62,926 nt of DNA, filler included, from Ionaspis alba (GCA_964255285.1; 11 parts of 11 records of this genome joined end to end with filler, not necessarily neighbours in it); one strand, 5' to 3'. Counted from the whole stretch's first letter, positions 16,940-51,654 are shown. Notes: generated from the sequence alone by a model not told the origin. Numbers and translations: made by a program.

Positions 16940-17317
16940 TTCTGGTGAGGAAGGCTGTACGAAGAATACGGTTATGCTCTATTGTACTTCTTTGGCATTG
17001 TCTGTTGCTGGTAGTGCATGAGTTGGAAGATACCCCTGGTGTCGCCTGTTGGATTTGTGCTCGGGGAGTACACTGTCCATAGTCAGGGAATGTATGACTT
17101 TTGGCGTTTGGGGTCATATTGTGAGATCTAGAGCAGCTTCTGGCTGGATGGAATCTAGGCTAGGAAATGTATGCATATGATGGACTCTTTTCGCATCTGG
17201 CCCGTTCCAACGCTCAANNNNNNNNNNNNNNNNNNNNNNNNNNNNNNNNNNNNNNNNNNNNTTAATTAATTAANNNNNNNNNNNNNNNNNNNNNNNNNNN
17301 NNNNNNNNNNNNNNNNN

Positions 17318-22154: not shown

Positions 22155-23324
22155 GGCGACGGCGGCCCGCTCGATTGCAGTCTGCTATATGCTGATATCA
22201 AGTCAACTTGTGGGTATGTATCGGTTAGGATAAGATGCGCTCGGGAATATGCCCAGAGTCGCCTGATCGCATTGCATCAACCGACGCGCAGGAAGATCAG
22301 TCCCAGGAGATAGTGAAGTGCTAGAATGATGGGGCAATTGGATCTGTTTCAAGGTCATGGGGTGAAGGAGGGACAAAAAGGCAACGTACCCGAAGAGTGG
22401 GTTCAACGGTGGAGGCTGGTATCACCGAAACCCGTACCACTCCTGCTTGCCACAATGCTGCAGACCCTGAGAAATCCCAAATTGGCAACCGAAACGTTCC
22501 GGGGGGGACCTGCAGGGAAGTCAAAGCACCGTGCCGTGAATGTCTCTTTTTACTTTTAGTTTCCTTCCTGCGTGGCAGCGGCGGCTAAAGTTGGATGTGC
22601 TTCACTTTATGCAGGCGGGCGCCAAATGCAAGGAATGTCTGGGGGAGTGATTGAGAAATAGAAAAGACAAAAATGAAATGCACGAGAAATGTAATGGAGG
22701 GGGCCAGGAATATCCGGGGGAGTTATTATTAAAGGAGGGCAATGTCGAGGATTGATTGCGGCCCATGCAAATGATGAAATGTGGGATCCTATGTGGGATG
22801 TATATTCGCGCCGAAGTGGTGATCAGCCAAGCAGGGCCTGGCGCTTCAGATGCAAATCCAGAGCCTGGTAGCTGGTACTGGTAGCGATGGGCCCAGAGGT
22901 CTATCACGTTTGCTGAAAAGGGATCGGCAGGAACAGTCGTGAGCGAAGTGGTACGGATTGCATANNNNNNNNNNNNNNNNNNNNNNNNNNNNNNNNNNNN
23001 NNNNNNNNTTAATTAATTAANNNNNNNNNNNNNNNNNNNNNNNNNNNNNNNNNNNNNNNNNNNNGTAACACTGCAGGTTCATCTCAGACCAAAAGTGGAC
23101 TAAATACATACACTAGTCGGGTGAACTAGTCTGCCAAGCCCACCGATCACGTGTTCTGCCCTCCGCCCTAACAGCTTGCAACGCACGAATATCATTTGTT
23201 TCTAGCGAGTGTAGTATAACGGAAATAGCTCAGCCAACTTTCGCAACATACACACATCATCGTCTTCTGCAGAATTGTCTTCGGGCATAAAAGAAGGATG
23301 CCCCATTCGAGACACTTGAAAATC

Positions 23325-23714
23325 CTACTTCGGCGGATTGTGTGCTCCATTCCTGCAGTGGCATGACTCACACCCGCCTGGTTTGCAATGTGTATCGACA
23401 CGCCAGATGAAATTGGTAGTGCCCGTGACGTGCTTACACACCAACTAGAGAGAGCACCAGAATGTTAGTACACATGTAGAATGAATCTTATAACAGGCCA
23501 ACGTGTGAACGGATAGATCAAGCTCGGGGGTACTTACTTTATTGCCATCATTTCCAGGTCCACATGTAAAGGACCCCTCATTGGTTGCCTCACAGGAGTT
23601 GCCTGCGTGTTTAGGACCGTTGATACAGATGGCACTCGCGGGAGCGGGAGCAGCCTGAGAGATTGGAAGCGATATCAGGGCAAAGGCAACAGCAAGAGTA
23701 GTTGTGATCTGCAT
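23325..23714 (-). CDS. Small secreted cysteine-rich protein, 98 aa, 8 Cys (exons 23714-23538 and 23444-23325)
   Basis: Signal peptide MQITTTLAVAFALISLPISQA. The 93-nt intron has GTAAGT, TACTAAC and TAG signals. Exon 2 reads LVCKHVTGTTNFIWRVDTHCKPGGCESCHCRNGAHNPPK*. Confidence 0.8.
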
Positions 23715-23840
23715 TGTGACTGTCTTGATGGTGGAAATGGAGGTGACTGTGATTCCGAAGTGTATCTCAAGAAGTAGATGGCTTAAGAGGCAGATGGCTG
23801 AGGTTGATGAGTAGAGAGAAAAACGGGGAGAGTTGGGGGC

Positions 23841-23848
23841 TTTTTATA
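23841..23848 (-). promoter_or_regulatory. Putative TATA box of the small secreted protein gene
   Basis: TATAAAAA on the minus strand about 130 nt upstream of the ATG, followed by a pyrimidine-rich tract. Confidence 0.55.
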
Positions 23849-26130
23849 GACAATCCGGCTTCGTTCGCTTGTATGGAAGCAAGCAATGTCAATAGTCTTA
23901 TCCCGCATCGACAAGCTGCAGGCAGCCTGAATAGAATCCAATCAAGACCCGAAGGATGATCATTCCTCGAGCCCCTCCGCATGAGCGCTTCCATCTCTCT
24001 CTCTCCGCAGTGATACCGTCCAGTTACCAGTGAATTGAAAATCGAACTAAGGCACTGTGACTGGCACCACCAACTTATTACGAGGATGTCGGTTTCCCCG
24101 CAATTGGTTGGGAAGCTTCCCAATGACGACGTGGATGAGGCAATGCCTATTATGTCTGCAGCCCTGCACAGTCATTTCTGGGGAAATATGCAGAGCTTCT
24201 TACCAACTGTTGGACTCTGTGCTGCCTTGAAATTATTGGTTAAACAAAGCCGATGTGATCTGTTGATGTTTCAAGACCGCGGCCTAGAATCGAGATTGTG
24301 ACTGCCTATATCCTGGGATAGATGTAGAGTTCGATAGCGAGCCCTGAACATATAGGCACTACGCTTGGATGTGCTGAGGTGGCGGCGGCACGCTTTGTCC
24401 TGTTATTGGCTAGCGAAGTCCAGAGTCGACAAGAAATGGAAGCCTTTCATTTTTATACGGGTTGGCTATGTCGGATAAAGCGGGATCGATCCTTCAATTG
24501 AAGAGCTATGTTTCCATGCCGCAGCTGATGGGGATGGCTGCAGCAAAAGCGATGGGAGTTCAAGTATGTTTTTTCCGCTGATGAGTGGTGCTGTCTGCAG
24601 ATCAGCATAGAGGCTCTAAGCAGTATTTTGTAGCGTTGGAAGTCGCGCTGTCCCGTCGGCTGCGACATTGAGATGTCGATCGACAAGAGAGACTGTCATC
24701 AAAGCAGGTGTTGTTCAGATCCAGGACATGTCGTTGGATGAGCATTTACTTCCGTATCGGGCTTCTTGGCAGTGGTTTCGGGGTCTTGGCATCTGCGACT
24801 CAAAATGGAAAGCAAGGGATTGTTTCAGACTTTTTTTAATAACGTTCAGCAACCACCAGGTATTTCGCCATTTTCAGAAGTCTTCAAGAAATTGAACAGG
24901 AACACTGAGACATTCGGCATAAAGAATGATCGAGATCGGAACCCCTCGCGCACAATATCCAATTCTTAGATCAAAACTGATACAAAGGTGTAAAAGTCGT
25001 AGCTCCAATCTGATTGGACAATTGAGCTCTTAAGAATCGCCAAAAACGGACATAAGATCTTTTACACTGAAAAGGTGGTGCTGGATTTTAGGGACCTGAA
25101 GAATTGTGAAATGTCAGCGCCGCCGTCGGTCTTGGACAGCATACGCTGGTTGTACATGCGCGATCTAAGAGGACGCTCGGTCAGTCGAGCCTACTATGGA
25201 ACTAGACACTGGCTGCAGCCTTTGTCCCGGGCTGGGCCACAGTACTGCATTGGGCTCAGCAGCAACAACAGCCCTCTATCTTACAGCTTGACCTGATTTC
25301 TGCAATTGTCCCGTATTCCGGAGAAGACGCCATTCTCGGGAGCAGCTTGCCAAGTCAACTAGCGGCCTCGACTTGCAGGTTTACTGTACCAACACAAGCG
25401 GCGTATTGACGTCGCAAATATATCGACCCAGGGACGAGTCGGCTGAGGATTTATGAGAGATGTTGCACAGAGAACTCTACCTGAAGATGAAGTCAGCATC
25501 CCCACATTTGAGAGCAAATGCGGGGATGCCGGGTTCTCGGGGATGCTGAGTCTCCACCAAGGAGCAAGGTAATCTGTCGAGAGCACTAGCATCAATGTCC
25601 CAAGGGCCTCATCGCCATGCCGACGAGGCGTACCTTGCTCGCTAGCCAGGTGGGTGTGACGAGTGTGTCGAAGAGGGCATTGTGGGAACCAAAGCGGCGA
25701 GGGAATAATGGCAGGTCTTATACCTACATACGTATACCCTCCGGAACAGAAAGGTTAACGGAACATACTTTGGCCGAGGCGTGAATAGGTGATGCCGCTG
25801 CTTTACCACAGCCCAAAATCAGGCAGTGGAGATACATGCCAAAGTCGCCGGTGTATTCCCGGGATCCCCGTCAAGGATGAGCGCCGACCCGCCCGTCGCG
25901 CGACGCGGCTGATGCTAGGGTGAGCGTAAAGCGGCCTCACCCTCGTTCTTGGCTCGTGAGAATCATCGGAGAATTCAATTCGCTGCCCAAGCTATCAATC
26001 AGCCCGTCATAGTCGGAAGAGGAGCTCATTCTAAGCCATTGAGACCTCTTCCTTGGTGCCAGCATCCTCCACACTCTAGCTATTGCAGTAGCCACTTCTC
26101 GACTGCAAATCCTTACTCCCCACTGCGAGC

Positions 26131-27525
26131 ATGTCAACCGACCTTCCCAGAATCCTCACGCCCCTCTCTCCACTCAAACCTCCTTCCTTGTCCCGCGCCT
26201 GGCTCAGCGCCCCCCACCATTCCCTTCCCCTTCTCGCAACTTGCTCCTCCGACAAGACCGTCCGCATCTACTCCCTCACCTCCTTCACCCTCCTCAGCTC
26301 CATCACCGGCGGCCACAAGCGCTCCGTCCGCTCCTGCGCCTGGAAGCCAGGCACGAAAGGCGAGAGCGTGCTCGCGACGGGAAGTTTCGATGCCAGTGTG
26401 GGGGTTTGGAAGCGCTGGGATGGGGATGGAGGGGGTGGGTTGAATGTTAGGCCTGAGCCGGAGGAGGTGGATTTTACGGGTGGAGTGGGTGAGGGTGGGG
26501 AGGATAATAGGGAGGAGGAGGACGATGATGAGTGGCGGTTTGCGCTCGTGCTCGATGGGCATGATTCGGAGGTTAAGAGCGTGGCGTGGTCGGCGGGTGG
26601 GAATCTCCTGGCCACTTGCTCCAGGGACAAAAGTGTTTGGATATGGGAGGAGGTTGGAGAGGATGATTTTGAGACTGTGGCGGTGCTGCAGGAGCATACT
26701 GGGGACGTCAAGTGTGTCGCCTGGCATCCAGAGGAGGAGTGTGTCGTTAGTGGGAGTTATGATGATGACATTAGGGTTTGGAGGGAGGATGTTGATGATT
26801 GGGCTTGTGTGGCGGTATTGAGAGGGCATGAGGGGACGGTTTGGGGTGTCGAGTGGGAAGGTACCATGTCTCATGTCTACGGAGATTACAAGGAAGGGGA
26901 AGAGGGGAGAAAGAGATGGATGGAGAGAAGAGAGAAGGCGGGTCCGAGGCTGGTGAGCTGCTCAGATGACATGAGTATCAGAGTATGGAGGAAGAGACCA
27001 AGGGAGAGGGGCCCGGTGCAGTCGAAATTGAGCATCATTCGCTCGGGCAGTATCGAGGAGGATTGGGTTGAGGAGTCGAAGTTACCACAGAGGCATGAAA
27101 GGGCGATTTACGCGGCAAAGTGGAGTGAGAAGACGGGGAGGGTTGTCAGTACTGGCGGAGATGGCAAGATCGTGGTCTATGAGGAGCGATGGAAAGGTGA
27201 AGGTCAAAGTGGAAGGAGTGGTTCAATTGCTGTGGCTACGAATGGCTTTGAGGAAGCTATGGAAGGTGTCGAGACAAATGGTCATGAACAGGTTCCTGCC
27301 CCGGAGAATGGGCCCGCTACCACAAATGCTTCAGAAGCTACGGAAGAGTTCCCAGATACAGAGTGGGTAGTTGTTGCCGAGTTTGAAGGAGCTCATGGTG
27401 TCTTCGAGGTCAACCATGTCTGCTGGGCACGAAGAGCCGACAGAGGGAAAAGAAGCGATGACGAAGAAATCATTGTCAGCACTGGCGATGATGGAGTGGT
27501 CAAGACGTGGATTTTGGACATTTGA
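26131..27525 (+). CDS. CIA1: Cytosolic Fe-S assembly WD40 protein Cia1
   Basis: GHKRSVRS.AW, LATGSFD, GHDSEVKSVAWS, LATCSRDKSVWIWE, FETVAVLQEHTGDVK.VAWHP and AHGVFEVNHV. Confidence 0.93.
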   Translation: MSTDLPRILTPLSPLKPPSLSRAWLSAPHHSLPLLATCSSDKTVRIYSLTSFTLLSSITGGHKRSVRSCAWKPGTKGESVLATGSFDASVGVWKRWDGDGGGGLNVRPEPEEVDFTGGVGEGGEDNREEEDDDEWRFALVLDGHDSEVKSVAWSAGGNLLATCSRDKSVWIWEEVGEDDFETVAVLQEHTGDVKCVAWHPEEECVVSGSYDDDIRVWREDVDDWACVAVLRGHEGTVWGVEWEGTMSHVYGDYKEGEEGRKRWMERREKAGPRLVSCSDDMSIRVWRKRPRERGPVQSKLSIIRSGSIEEDWVEESKLPQRHERAIYAAKWSEKTGRVVSTGGDGKIVVYEERWKGEGQSGRSGSIAVATNGFEEAMEGVETNGHEQVPAPENGPATTNASEATEEFPDTEWVVVAEFEGAHGVFEVNHVCWARRADRGKRSDDEEIIVSTGDDGVVKTWILDI

Positions 27526-27861
27526 CAAATATTTGATGACGTTCATTCACAGCATCTATGGCACTCAAATGACTGCGCGACTGGTGGACTTACTCATACC
27601 CTCAATACAATTCGCCGAATCAGAGTCAACCCAATTCATGTGCTACCAATCATAGCTGATGAGTACGTTTTTGTTTTGCCCGATATAAGTCCAGTCTTCC
27701 TTGTTTGCGATCCTTTTCGTTCCTCTTCCATATCAGACATTTTGTTCAACAATCCTCTTTGTGTTCTCCTATTACCACATTCACCATTCTTTGTCTGCCC
27801 ACTGACACAGTCTAAGCTATCAAAGATCCGCAAACAGCTAATTGCGGTAATCAAGGCTAAA

Positions 27862-28699
27862 ATGCTGCTTTCGCGCATAATCATTCTGGCTTTCGCAGCC
27901 GGCGCGCTTGCTCAGAGCTCCACCGATATTCTCGCAAGCAGTTCCGACAAGGCCACCCAGCAGCTGAACGAAATACTAAGCGTTCATGAGAACGTGTACT
28001 GCAACGTTCTCTGCCTCACGCCAAGTTCCGGCTATAAAAGCAAAGCGCCTTCAGAGTTGGCATTACTCACCACGATACTGACCGCGCTCTTCATGGTCGC
28101 CTCCAGCTCCCAATCTCTTGCCTATCTTGCCTTTCCAACCTTTGCTCATACTCAGGTTCATCACAGACTGTCAGGCGATTCTGGTCTGATATTTCACGAC
28201 ACCAACTCCCAAGCCTCGGAAAGAGATATCCAGCATTCTAGCAGCATTGCTACTTCACTGTCAAACGGCTCTTCGGAGCTTCATATCCTCGAAAACAAAG
28301 ATCGTAATGCTAAAAAGCATTTCTGGGATACAAGCTCTGGAAGTCGCAATAGCAGATCGATTTCTGCCTTGACGGCTCTGATCCCATTCCTGACGTCTTT
28401 ATTGATCGGCAAGAATGGTTTTTATTCTATGCTTTTTGTTGCCATTCCAGCTTTCGCTCAGAATCAAATGAACCAAGAGAAGCCGAACGATTTTCATCTC
28501 TTAGACCCTGACCTTCATGCTCAAGGTCTTGAAGAAAGAACTTCATTTCTTACAGTCAACATCACAAACCTATCGAATGGTACTTCCCATCTTGCTTTGT
28601 CTGATAAAAAAGGTCACAGCTGTCATCCGGATAAGGAAACTTGCCCAAAGACTTCCGCAAGCCGCAGTGGCAAGACTCTTTCTTGGGTGTCGGTTCTGG
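27862..28699 (+). CDS. Orphan secretory-pathway protein with tandem signal/GPI-like modules; 3' partial
   Basis: AAAATG start, signal peptide MLLSRIIILAFAAGALA|Q, 279 open codons to the scaffold end, and an internal repeat TSLSNGSSELHI / TNLSNGTSHLAL. Confidence 0.7.
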
Positions 28700-28799
28700 N
28701 NNNNNNNNNNNNNNNNNNNNNNNNNNNNNNNNNNNNNNNNNNNTTAATTAATTAANNNNNNNNNNNNNNNNNNNNNNNNNNNNNNNNNNNNNNNNNNNN

Positions 28800-29225
28800 A
28801 AGTTCACGGGTTCTATCCTGTCGAACATGCCCCGTGCATACAGAAGACCGCAACAATAACGCGCAATCAGGCCACCGAGGGAGTATCCAACCATGCTAAG
28901 CTTCTTGATCTCAGGTCCATCCTTCGAAAACCGTTCGAGCTCGTCCTCAATCTCTTGTGCCAGGCGTTCTCCACCGACTTCGATGCCATCGTAAGTGTAA
29001 TTGTCCGAATTGCGCGCAGCTACTAGTACGTGGAGTTTGTCTCCATATTTGGTTTCTAAGGAAGACCGAAGGTATTCGAGATGACCTGGGTTGCCCCAAA
29101 GACTATACAATGATAGTCAGCAACAGCGCAGACGTGTTCTTCAGGTCTGTTTACCCATGTACCAAGACACAAAGGTGATCTGCTTTTGCACTTCCGCCAG
29201 TAGTCGTCCGCTCTGCTGCTTCCAT
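28800..29225 (-). CDS. DUF676 putative serine esterase/lipase; 3' partial; intron 29154-29103
   Basis: HLCVLVHG/LWGN, TYDGIEVGGERLA and the nucleophile elbow GYSLGG. Confidence 0.88.
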
Positions 29226-31721: not shown

Positions 31722-32993
31722 CTCGGTGTATAGACACGGTATTGCCATTGTGGACAAGCACCGAGATGCTTGGATCCTTGGGCAGAGTCCCAGGTTCAGT
31801 AGAACTGCCCCTGTCGTGCTCGCCTCTCCTCGTCAACGGAGCAGGTGGCAGTGGCTGGGCCTTGAGCCACGCAGCCTCCGTCTGACCGCCGCTTGACGTG
31901 CTTCCTCTAAGTCAGAGTCTTTATCTAAACTGTTGATGCTCTGGTCGTTGATGCTCATGTAGCCGCGTAATCGGTGTTGACCCTATTTCACATGCTTGCC
32001 CATTACATATTGCCCAATCACGGCACTTCCATTCATCTATGCCAAGAGCCATCTCCCAGGGGTACTGTCGCAGTGATGTCATCCCCTGGAAACTGTGCTG
32101 TAGAGATTGAACTTGTGTCCCTGAGCTACGGTCAGAATTGGTTCTGGTCGACTTGTCCGGTACTCAAGTGAACAGGATAAATGTGAGGAGATAGTTTACC
32201 ATCACCATCCAGTCACCAGCGATCTACATTCCACTCTATTAGAAGAGAGGCAAATACGAATACAATCACAATTTTCCTCCTCGAAGACCCCTGGAAGCGA
32301 ATATATCTCGTCCCGCTAGGAACGGCTTTGACTCGGGGAATTCGGGGGCTAAGGGTGGCTAAGGGTGGCTAGTGGAGCTTTTATCGGCGGTATTGCAGGC
32401 ATTTACGGGCAATCAGATTTCAGGATTTGCCAGTGGGGTCCAAGGGATCTCTAAGGTCTGGTTCTCTGCTGCCCCACCTCGTCATCGTAGCACCGAAAGA
32501 ATGAATATCCTTGTCACCCACTGTGTTGAATACATGCTTTTTCGAAGGATTGGTAAGAGCGTAGTGGCATGAGTGATTGTCCCCCTTGTGGAAGAACTAT
32601 GGGCCCGTGGGGCCGATAGGAAGGAGGGACTGGTTAGGACCCATATAAATACATTGTTGCCAGTCGTTTCGACTCACTCTTTTTACATCTCTGCTTGATT
32701 GACCTCGGACCTCCTATCCATCTTATCCTTCCCCACAGTCGTTGCCAATTGAGCACACAAAGCTTCACTGTTACTCCTACTCAGGCAGACCCACAGGCAG
32801 CGACCCACCAAGGCTCTTTGTCCCCTCGCAGAAACTCGATGTCCACCACGACTACANNNNNNNNNNNNNNNNNNNNNNNNNNNNNNNNNNNNNNNNNNNN
32901 NNNNNNNNNNNNNNNNNNNNNNNNNNNNNNNNNNNNNNNNNNNNNNNNNNNNNNNNGACCCACCAAGGCTCTTTGTCCCCTCGCAGAAACTCG

Positions 32994-34381: not shown

Positions 34382-34523
34382 ACTGAGCATAGGGGAACTT
34401 GAGGAAATCGGTTTGATGCGGCTNNNNNNNNNNNNNNNNNNNNNNNNNNNNNNNNNNNNNNNNNNNNTTAATTAATTAANNNNNNNNNNNNNNNNNNNNN
34501 NNNNNNNNNNNNNNNNNNNNNNN

Positions 34524-40144: not shown

Positions 40145-41120
40145 NNNNNNNNNNNNNNNNNNNNNNNNNNNNNNNNNNNNNNNNNNNNTTAATTAATTAA
40201 NNNNNNNNNNNNNNNNNNNNNNNNNNNNNNNNNNNNNNNNNNNNTGGTCGGGAATGACGATTCGGGGAGATGTGAAGTGGAGCCGCTGCAAAACATAGTT
40301 GCGTCGACTTTCCACCAGGATCAATGCTTTGAGGAGCTGGTTCGGGACCAACGGTGCACAACCTTTACCATGGAAGGAATCGAAGCACCAGTCGGAGATC
40401 TTGGCATTAGTCGGAGCATGGGGGCCCATTGGAGGCGCTATGGGTGTGATGGCGGTTGTGGATGGTGGGGTGGAGACCCACGGACCTCCAACGATCTGGC
40501 GGGAGCAGCGGTACGTATCGTGGGAGCTGGCGTCACTGGTCAACGGTCATCAGATAGTAGGCATCAAGAAAGCATAGAATTTATGAGCTTCATAGTGTTC
40601 TTTTTCCGTTGTGGAACATTTACATTCTTCTCCAACAGCTACAAGATAAAATATTACAAATTGCCTTCGATTCCGTTTTGACTCTCTTCCTTCGCCGTCT
40701 CCGAAGTGGTTCTTCTGTCTCGGGACCTTTCAACGCGCCACGTCGAGCTACGACAAGCTATACGACTTATAGCAAGCAATCGACAGATTTGTCTCCACAT
40801 CATGCTCTATCCTTGCTCGTTATAGACCGTCAGCCGCGATAACCTTCGTCTGTTCTTTCTCCAGAGCAGATCCAACCTATCAGAGCTTCACCTTCAACTT
40901 CTGTGACCCCCACCTGCTCGAAATCTTAATCCTTCCTATCCTCTAATACTCCAAATCTTTGCTTTCTCCTCTTAGAACACAATCCGACTCGCTCCAAATT
41001 TCCCTTACGATCTACACTAAAGTCAGATCCCGTCGATATTCCTCGGTTTCTGCGGCTGCTGATCGCCCATCGACTCCAACGAACTATCTGCAAGGCACGC
41101 GGCCGGTTGGGTTGTTCAAG

Positions 41121-45480: not shown

Positions 45481-46303
45481 ATGGGGCTTGGTGTGCACGC
45501 TGTTCAAGAAGATGTATATAGATAGGAGGAATACTTATATATGATTACCTGATCACGTTGACCTACATCTTCGTCCTCCTCGTTATTCAGTTTGAAGTAT
45601 TCGCAGATTTGACATTGATTTCTGTATTGTCGTGCGGTGTCCGCCGCGTCCTCTCTCTTTTTCTTTTTTCTTTTCAGTTCCGATGGTGAAATTCTGTGTA
45701 CGTCGTTGATATTGAAATTTTGACAAGATTAGATCAACTATATATGAAACAAACGCCTTGGGTAACGGTGGCAGCTATGGCCGGGCCCGTGAGGGTGCCC
45801 GTGGGGAATGGCGAGAGAGGGGAGGAAGAGGAGGAAAGGGAGGGAGCAACGGGGTGGGTNNNNNNNNNNNNNNNNNNNNNNNNNNNNNNNNNNNNNNNNN
45901 NNNTTAATTAATTAANNNNNNNNNNNNNNNNNNNNNNNNNNNNNNNNNNNNNNNNNNNNTGCAGGGGGAGGGATTGGGGAGGGATGGGGTGGGGGAGTGT
46001 GTGTTTGGATATACAGAGCGTGGAGTTTGGATGGGATATATGCTTGGATTGGATATGGGTATTGGATGAGCTTTCTTGATGGTGGCGAGGATTGGATGAG
46101 ATCCACGTGTAGCGTTCTGTTGAACGGGATGGTCCGTAGATACATTGGTAGGATATACATAACGCTTCTGGATTGAAACTCCGATTGGAACCCTGGCCTT
46201 CTGGATGTCCAAGCGAAATAGGTATTTTCCATGACACTTGAATGACTGCGATGCCCTTTTCACCCCCATAGCTCTCCGTACCATTTGCCTCACTGTCTGT
46301 CAA

Positions 46304-51484: not shown

Positions 51485-51654
51485 CTATAAAAGAAAGCGG
51501 CGCGAGAAGCATCAACCCGTCGACATCCGGCCAAGTCGATACTCGAGCCAGGATNNNNNNNNNNNNNNNNNNNNNNNNNNNNNNNNNNNNNNNNNNNNTT
51601 AATTAATTAANNNNNNNNNNNNNNNNNNNNNNNNNNNNNNNNNNNNNNNNNNNN

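Follow-up and report, generated by a model that had tools for sequence, protein, structure and literature searches.

Tandem ectodomains joined by a conserved, split hydrophobic junction in a predicted secretory precursor of Ionaspis alba

Introduction

Textbooks, predictors and genome annotation regard glycosylphosphatidylinositol (GPI) signals as strictly C-terminal, and fungal repeat precursors such as Ustilago Rep1 and Candida Ece1 are processed by Kex2. We describe here an open reading frame (ORF) of Ionaspis alba (GCA_964255285.1), located at 27862..28698 of a 62,926-base stretch of DNA that was analysed whole and is termed the window, whose predicted product consists of a signal peptide followed by small ectodomains joined through hydrophobic blocks. 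The best explanation of its sequence features is that it is a real, lineage-restricted fungal gene for a secretory-pathway precursor, made up of at least three tandem units of ~104 residues.

With the Kex2-processed precursors the ORF shares a signal peptide and tandem units, an arrangement in which one precursor is thought to give rise to several peptides; it differs in that its joints are hydrophobic blocks, KR and RR sites between units being absent. With ordinary GPI proteins of the fungal wall and plasma membrane it shares a signal peptide, richness in Ser and N-glycosylation sequons, as well as small residues at omega and omega+2, a hydrophilic spacer and a hydrophobic tail. Unlike theirs, its signals are internal and multiple, with tails of 14-15 residues instead of ~20; a second hydrophobic stretch follows each tail, and the C-terminus lies outside the assembly.

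The literature on the relevant processing steps is cited here from parts of the papers named. A GPI signal comprises small residues at omega and omega+2, then ~10 hydrophilic and ~20 hydrophobic residues, 20-30 in total (PMC7125958), the residue at omega+2 being subject to a requirement of its own (PMC2119539). Such a signal can work away from the C-terminus when placed there: in a DAF-hGH fusion produced in COS cells (Caras 1991), a mid-chain GPI signal was processed to yield GPI-anchored DAF, and processing persisted even when a signal peptide served as the hydrophobic part (PMC2288913). The fusion resembles our ORF in having a mid-chain GPI signal in a translocated chain with a lumenal domain after it; it differs in being artificial and confined to COS cells, with a single signal, no repeated units, and a tail that lacks a signal-peptidase site behind it.

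A likeness in layout is provided by the E1/E2 anchors of hepatitis C virus (HCV), which consist of two abnormally short hydrophobic stretches with polar residues between them; they are folded into a hairpin while translation proceeds and, once signal peptidase has cut, flip over to span the membrane once (PMC3970144). Both there and here the junction block, shorter than ~30 residues in HCV, is made of two short hydrophobic stretches split by a few polar residues. The first HCV stretch acts as a stop-transfer sequence, whereas the second serves the following lumenal ectodomain as its signal and has the site cleaved by host signal peptidase at its end; the HCV ectodomains carry N-glycans. The differences are that ours is a fungal cellular ORF resembling neither a virus nor anything else in sequence, that it consists of homologous ~104-residue repeats with tiny ectodomains, that its first loop is uncharged, that small-residue sites lie 7-8 residues before its tails and also fit a GPI signal, and that its cleavage is a proposal from sequence.

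Work on signal peptidase indicates what kind of segment the enzyme accepts. Short h-regions set cleaved signals apart from signal anchors (PMC2120157); the yeast enzyme cleaves after a segment of 14 Leu and partially after one of 17 Leu, and cleaves double-spanning model proteins after the second segment (PMC8277137).

Results

The reading frame and the segments of its product

The ORF and the segments of its predicted product are as follows; the calls of signal peptide, omega and cleavage sites are rule-based.

27862..28698, plus strand: ORF of 279 codons with its 3' end missing, the scaffold ending at 28699 (translation, codon statistics)
27862..27912, plus strand: predicted N-terminal signal peptide, residues 1-17, with R5, a 12-residue hydrophobic core and ALA before Q18 (rule-based)
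27913..28023, plus strand: ectodomain 1, residues 18-54, with two Cys and no sequon, unlike units 2 and 3 (sequence comparison)
28018..28155, plus strand: junction module 1, residues 53-98, T-P-S-S-G ... P-T-F-A before H96 (segment map, junction alignment)
28147..28332, plus strand: ectodomain 2, residues 96-157, with the sequon N135-G-S (unit alignment)
28330..28467, plus strand: junction module 2, residues 157-202, T-S-S-G ... P-A-F-A before Q200 (segment map, junction alignment)
28459..28653, plus strand: ectodomain 3, residues 200-264, with sequons N233, N236 and N239 and two Cys, homologous to ectodomain 2 (unit alignment)
28651..28698, plus strand: start of junction module 3, residues 264-279, T-S-A-S, cut by the scaffold end (segment map)

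The start codon (27862-27864) is the first in-frame ATG past the stop of a WD40 gene upstream on the same scaffold (26131-27525, plus strand; Pfam WD40, E 6.5e-40), and the signal peptide begins directly at it. The frame is free of stops over 391 codons; the longest such run was 283 codons when the region was shuffled 1000 times and 233 when the scaffold was shuffled 300 times. Its codon log-odds is 0.149 bits per codon, compared with -0.247 and -0.212 off frame, and lies within the 0.088-0.209 spanned by the window's 14 other long ORFs; frame 0 scores highest in all 12 sliding windows. No intron candidate of the pattern GT[AG]NG[TCA]...branch...YAG was found in the ORF. It looks from its sequence to be genuinely coding, unspliced, and headed by a signal peptide. 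The product is Ser-rich (15.8% Ser), with Cys at residues 47, 51, 254 and 261.

In junction 1, SSG (55-57) is followed by the spacer YKSKAPSE (58-65), a tail of 15 hydrophobic residues, LALLTTILTALFMVA (66-80), the polar segment SSSQS (81-85) and a second stretch of 10 hydrophobic residues, LAYLAFPTFA (86-95), then HTQ. Junction 2 has SSG (158-160), the spacer SRNSRSIS (161-168), a tail of 14 hydrophobic residues, ALTALIPFLTSLLI (169-182), GKNG (183-186) and a second stretch of 13, FYSMLFVAIPAFA (187-199), then QNQ. Junction 3 begins in the same way, with SAS (265-267), the spacer RSGKTLS (268-274) and WVSVL (275-279), at which point the scaffold ends.

This layout also bears on the idea that several separate small products arise by internal initiation or splicing, each an ordinary protein of signal peptide, ectodomain and GPI signal. 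A Met, M190, does lie within the signal-like stretch of unit 3, but no stop codon separates the units, unit 2 has no Met ahead of its signal-like stretch, splicing would have to use introns of which there are no candidates, and the signal-like stretches lack the charged N-terminal part that a free-standing signal peptide has; we consider this explanation very improbable.

Conservation of the junction

The repeat has a period of 104 residues. Homology between units 2 and 3 extends over their full length: 25 of 91 positions are identical (27%, E 4e-9) with one gap of 2 residues, and none of 2000 shuffles matches their Smith-Waterman score of 94. Aligned codon by codon they are 50.6% identical in nucleotides, with 53, 56 and 43% identity at the three codon positions, and the proportion of nonsynonymous sites that differ (pN, 0.453) is below that of synonymous sites (pS, 0.633). 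The duplication is old, and the order of the codon positions and the lower pN argue that the copies diverged while being read in the present frame. At the DNA level only short chance matches, of 12-19 nt, recur in the ORF.

Junctions 1 (residues 52-98) and 2 (155-202) can be aligned over 46 residues with no gap; the score, 62, was reached by none of 5000 full shuffles (z 9.2) and by none of 5000 shuffles in which the polar/hydrophobic layout was kept (z 5.4). The first half of the conserved junction reads T-x-S-small-small, then 7-8 polar residues including two K/R, then 14-15 hydrophobic residues; the second half consists of 4-5 polar residues, 10-13 hydrophobic residues ending in A-x-P-x-F-A, and Q/H-x-Q, so that the columns A-x-P-x-F-A-x-x-Q, at the cut proposed below, are common to both. 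The ectodomains behave differently. Pairwise alignment detected no similarity of ectodomain 1 to ectodomains 2 or 3, BLASTP gives no alignment of unit 1 with the whole of unit 2, and hhalign of a profile of units 2 and 3 against unit 1 recovers the tail only (29 columns, E 0.074). Judged by these alignments, the best-conserved element is the 46-residue junction and not the ectodomain; that the junction persisted as the units diverged to 27% identity, with the ectodomains drifting or diversifying, argues that it is used. Between the N-terminal signal peptide and the internal signal-like stretches there are short alignments with scores of 16-17, for which no significance was computed.

The initial annotation had described one architecture repeated three times, up to a cut by the scaffold end. 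Every peptide string it quoted is found in the ORF translation, and 28699 is indeed the last base before a linker. The repetition itself holds for the junction, which recurs, and for units 2 and 3, which are homologous, but not for ectodomain 1, for which no similarity to the others was detected; the sequon it noted as common to units 2 and 3 is borne out by conservation of LSNG(S/T)S.

Searches for homologues

Relatives with variable numbers of units, which had been suggested as a test, were not found: all homologue searches were blank or gave spurious matches. Pfam returned no family for the ORF at E up to 10. In a word-indexed search of 5.8 billion clusters no match was found at near lengths, where the ORF's own protein is also absent, nor among longer proteins of 490-2000 residues, and a two-unit profile found none among clusters of 50-181 residues. 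The ESM Atlas gave no usable match for the whole protein or for the unit at 84-182, the PDB sequences gave none at E up to 1, and metagenome contigs from JGI gave 65 pattern matches by protein, none confirmed, and none to an exact 40-mer from the scaffold end. Searching the window itself with the ORF (tblastn) produced only noise (E > 2). Exhaustive phmmer against 1.84 billion representatives produced a single match, P0002 (856 residues, E 3.3e-6), which we judge to be spurious: it is a different repeat protein and matches only around A-Y-L-A-F...A-Q-x-H.

An orphan in every search, with its own protein missing from so large a collection, could be a gene that does not work, i.e. a young or decaying frame, unexpressed or useless, whose architecture tandem duplication happened to leave in place. 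Two other results lean the same way: the language-model recognition value of the protein is 1630, below the 2300 that is reached by 91 of 100 known-family proteins, and its structure model is of low confidence. The coding data speak to the contrary. All 391 codons are still free of stops in spite of the divergence between copies, to 27% identity in protein and 51% in nucleotides; identity is lowest at third codon positions, with pN lower than pS; the ORF has the codon usage typical of the genome; and the signal peptide starts exactly at the first in-frame ATG. On balance we think a non-working gene improbable.

Topology and signal-like features of the junction

The four sequons (N135, N233, N236, N239) all lie within ectodomains, and units 2 and 3 have one of them in common, which makes it most likely that the units lie on the same, lumenal, side of the membrane. 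An arrangement in which each ~30-residue block forms one long span, with successive units on alternating sides, would be ruled out by such same-side sequons. Kex2-type processing was rejected, there being no KR or RR between units or anywhere in the product; KK occurs only at 151 and 249, both inside ectodomains. The distinction from Kex2-processed repeats drawn in the initial annotation is upheld on this point.

Small residues are present at omega and omega+2 at all three candidate sites, S-S-G (55-57), S-S-G (158-160) and S-A-S (265-267), and are followed by hydrophilic spacers of 8, 8 and 7 residues with two K/R each. Both internal edges pass the -3/-1 rule with no Pro at +1 (T-F-A|H and A-F-A|Q), Pro being at -4. 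The first hydrophobic stretches have 19-residue Kyte-Doolittle maxima of 1.66 and 1.54, borderline with respect to the 1.6 expected of a ~19-residue span, and the second stretches, of 10 and 13 residues and each containing a Pro, are absent from hydropathy windows of 15 or 19 residues. Each of the three spacers at the lumenal flank has 2 Lys or Arg, and the putative cytosolic loops have 0 and 1; these residues being mainly on the lumenal flank, they are contrary to the positive-inside rule for stable anchors.

These features have to be set against the possibility that the chain is never cut at the junctions. It would then be a membrane glycoprotein that loses its signal peptide and keeps its split blocks, of 30-31 residues, as hairpins or re-entrant wedges; the ectodomains would be lumenal or extracellular loops of one chain, and the resemblance to GPI signals and signal peptides a relic of duplication. 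Such a protein would have the same topology as a processed one, with all sequons in loops; a structural hairpin would explain conservation of the junction block equally well, and the small-residue rules are weak. A single-sequence AlphaFold2 model places helices at 63-81 and 170-181, to which we give little weight since it is not usable as a structure (mean pLDDT 38.8, pTM 0.22). In yeast, Spc1 damps cleavage by signal peptidase and protects transmembrane segments from it, according to the part of that study cited (PMC8277137). On the other side, the second stretches, with their 10 and 13 residues and their Pro, are too short to be bilayer helices, and 15+10 or 14+13 residues are insufficient for a full double span; the positive charges are on the wrong side; and conservation within the second stretch peaks at the P-x-F-A-x-x-Q edge, not in the core. 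An uncut protein is in our view the main alternative, a serious possibility if a doubtful one.

Discussion

A proposed processing of the precursor

The reading that we favour, tentatively and at somewhat less than an even chance, is that a small gene composed of signal peptide, ectodomain and GPI signal underwent in-frame duplication, and that cleavage at the junctions releases tethered mini-glycopeptides. The origin would be a tandem in-frame duplication of nearly the whole of a small coding sequence, with one breakpoint within the signal peptide and the other immediately ahead of the stop codon; a duplication with these breakpoints would create a joint consisting of a GPI-type tail and a signal peptide minus its Met and charged head. 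The N-terminal signal peptide would bring the chain into the endoplasmic reticulum (ER), a short transient hairpin would form at each junction, and signal peptidase would cut after P-x-F-A. Several distinct small N-glycosylated peptides would result from each precursor, every one with a hydrophobic peptide at its C-terminus. This peptide might be exchanged for a GPI anchor at S-S-G or S-A-S; alternatively it might flip and stay as a membrane anchor in the manner of HCV E1/E2. In either case the ectodomains would be free to diverge while the junctions were kept.

The more specific proposal, that the internal units are GPI-anchored and that one mRNA and one precursor give rise to at least three different GPI-anchored glycopeptides, we regard as unlikely, though by no means negligible. 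It would have transamidase acting at internal S-S-G or S-A-S and signal peptidase at P-x-F-A, alternating along the chain, each 40-residue junction being discarded by the paired cuts and the gene growing by in-frame duplication of units that run from signal peptide to GPI signal. The design of the junction fits equally well a cut by signal peptidase only, leaving a membrane anchor, or an uncut hairpin. The initial annotation's overall interpretation, of one product cut to expose internal GPI signals, accordingly survives as an architecture whose steps are each plausible from the literature, but two other outcomes fit as well.

A number of observations weigh against the processing we favour. 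An omega-like site 5-10 residues before a tail arises by chance with p = 0.48 per tail, and such sites before all three tails with a chance of 0.106, the composition being Ser-rich; the -3/-1 rule is satisfied by chance with p = 0.21 per edge. The omega and -3/-1 rules alone are not above chance and add little; more comes from the physical layout of stretches, charges and sequons, which suits signals better than transmembrane helices. The GPI-type tails, of 15 and 14 residues, are internal, not ~20 residues long and C-terminal; as encoded neither ends the chain, and each would do so only after a cut at P-x-F-A. Of the GPI-type signals first proposed, the small residues and spacers fit, then, whereas the tails are short and internal and the omega rule comes close to a coin toss. 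Access for signal peptidase requires that the first stretch span the membrane, and its borderline hydrophobicity and lumenal charges suggest that it might not. Homology of the junctions is evidence of common descent and constraint, but not of which constraint. In the cited parts of the literature, cleavage of yeast signal sequences drops as the N-terminal extension lengthens (PMC8277137), and the title of a Trypanosoma cruzi study states that recognition of a signal peptide relies on its N-terminal position (PMC6513831). The sole demonstrated internal GPI signal that we know of is engineered and mammalian. Finally, the blank searches of protein and metagenome collections provide no comparative support, and the ORF's own C-terminus lies beyond the assembly, leaving three as a minimum for the number of units.

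No natural polyprotein of GPI proteins and no natural internal GPI signal was found in the literature searched, which covered few subscription journals; the earlier remark that this processing logic is undescribed in fungi agrees with that result. If the internal units were GPI-anchored, the ORF would provide the first example of internal GPI signals used in nature, and viral glycoprotein polyproteins would have a counterpart in a cell. This would mean that the ER machinery is able to process strings of ectodomain, GPI signal and signal peptide, that fungi have a compact route for making and diversifying several surface peptides from one promoter, and that in-frame duplication of a whole gene can be functional at once. 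Prediction of GPI signals at the C-terminus only would miss such genes. Even an uncut product would be a clean example of a junction module more conserved than the domains it joins.

The scaffold end

The window consists of 11 scaffolds joined by linkers in descending order of size (5,689, 5,668, 5,660, 5,647, 5,635, 5,624, 5,621, 5,615, 5,595, 5,588 and 5,584 bp), the linkers being at 5690-5789, 11458-11557, 17218-17317, 22965-23064, 28700-28799, 34424-34523, 40145-40244, 45860-45959, 51555-51654 and 57243-57342. Since the scaffolds are unrelated, any neighbourhood across a linker is artificial. The ORF occupies the 3' end of the fifth scaffold (23065-28699), whose last base is 28699. Two further features flank it:

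27684..27689, plus strand: TATAAG, a possible TATA box ~175 bp 5' of the ATG, in a pyrimidine-rich region (read from sequence)
28700..28799, no strand: artificial linker, N44-TTAATTAATTAA-N44, between two unrelated scaffolds (sequence read)

Because the linker joins separate scaffolds, the truncation of the ORF is real and the DNA past 28800 is unrelated to it.

Contigs of unrecorded kind from three sequencing runs, X1 and X2 among them, were compared with the sequence. An independent X1 contig of 1060 nt repeats 27640-28699 with one difference, T>C at 28578, which is synonymous (AAT>AAC, the codon being read from the window sequence), and it ends at the identical base, 28699. An X2 contig of 178 nt and low depth reaches 45 nt past 28699, and summed depth climbs from 118 to 138 in the last bin before the scaffold end. 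The assembly break at 28699 may be a repeat or branch, perhaps consisting of more units of the gene.

Upstream, the WD40 gene and the ORF share a frame, and the 112 codons between them (27526-27861) are stop-free, probably owing to the pyrimidine-rich stretch; from the WD40 stop to 27640 there is no ATG, GTG or TTG in the ORF's frame.

Other features of the window

On the same scaffold, at 23448-23714 on the minus strand, an ORF of 89 residues begins in the manner of a signal peptide, MQITTTLAVAFALISLPISQA, and contains six Cys; a Pfam search with it returned no family, and we regard it as a candidate for a small, cysteine-rich secreted protein. Over the first 3 kb of the scaffold (23065-26200) run X1 contains two forms, each at about half depth, in contigs that are 90-95% alike and differ by many substitutions and small indels, whereas from ~26176 to 28699 the contigs are single and show 0-3 differences, a pattern that suggests two haplotypes or strains, diverged from each other, for part of the scaffold only.

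Beyond the linker, the next scaffold opens with a linker-cut fragment of a DUF676 putative serine esterase (28802-29110, minus strand, E 1.5e-22). Four more N100 runs, at 32857, 37977, 42702 and 49809, are gaps within scaffolds. Other long ORFs of the window match V-ATPase subunit a, aldehyde dehydrogenase, Sir2, pyridine-nucleotide disulphide oxidoreductase and SOG2 of the RAM pathway.

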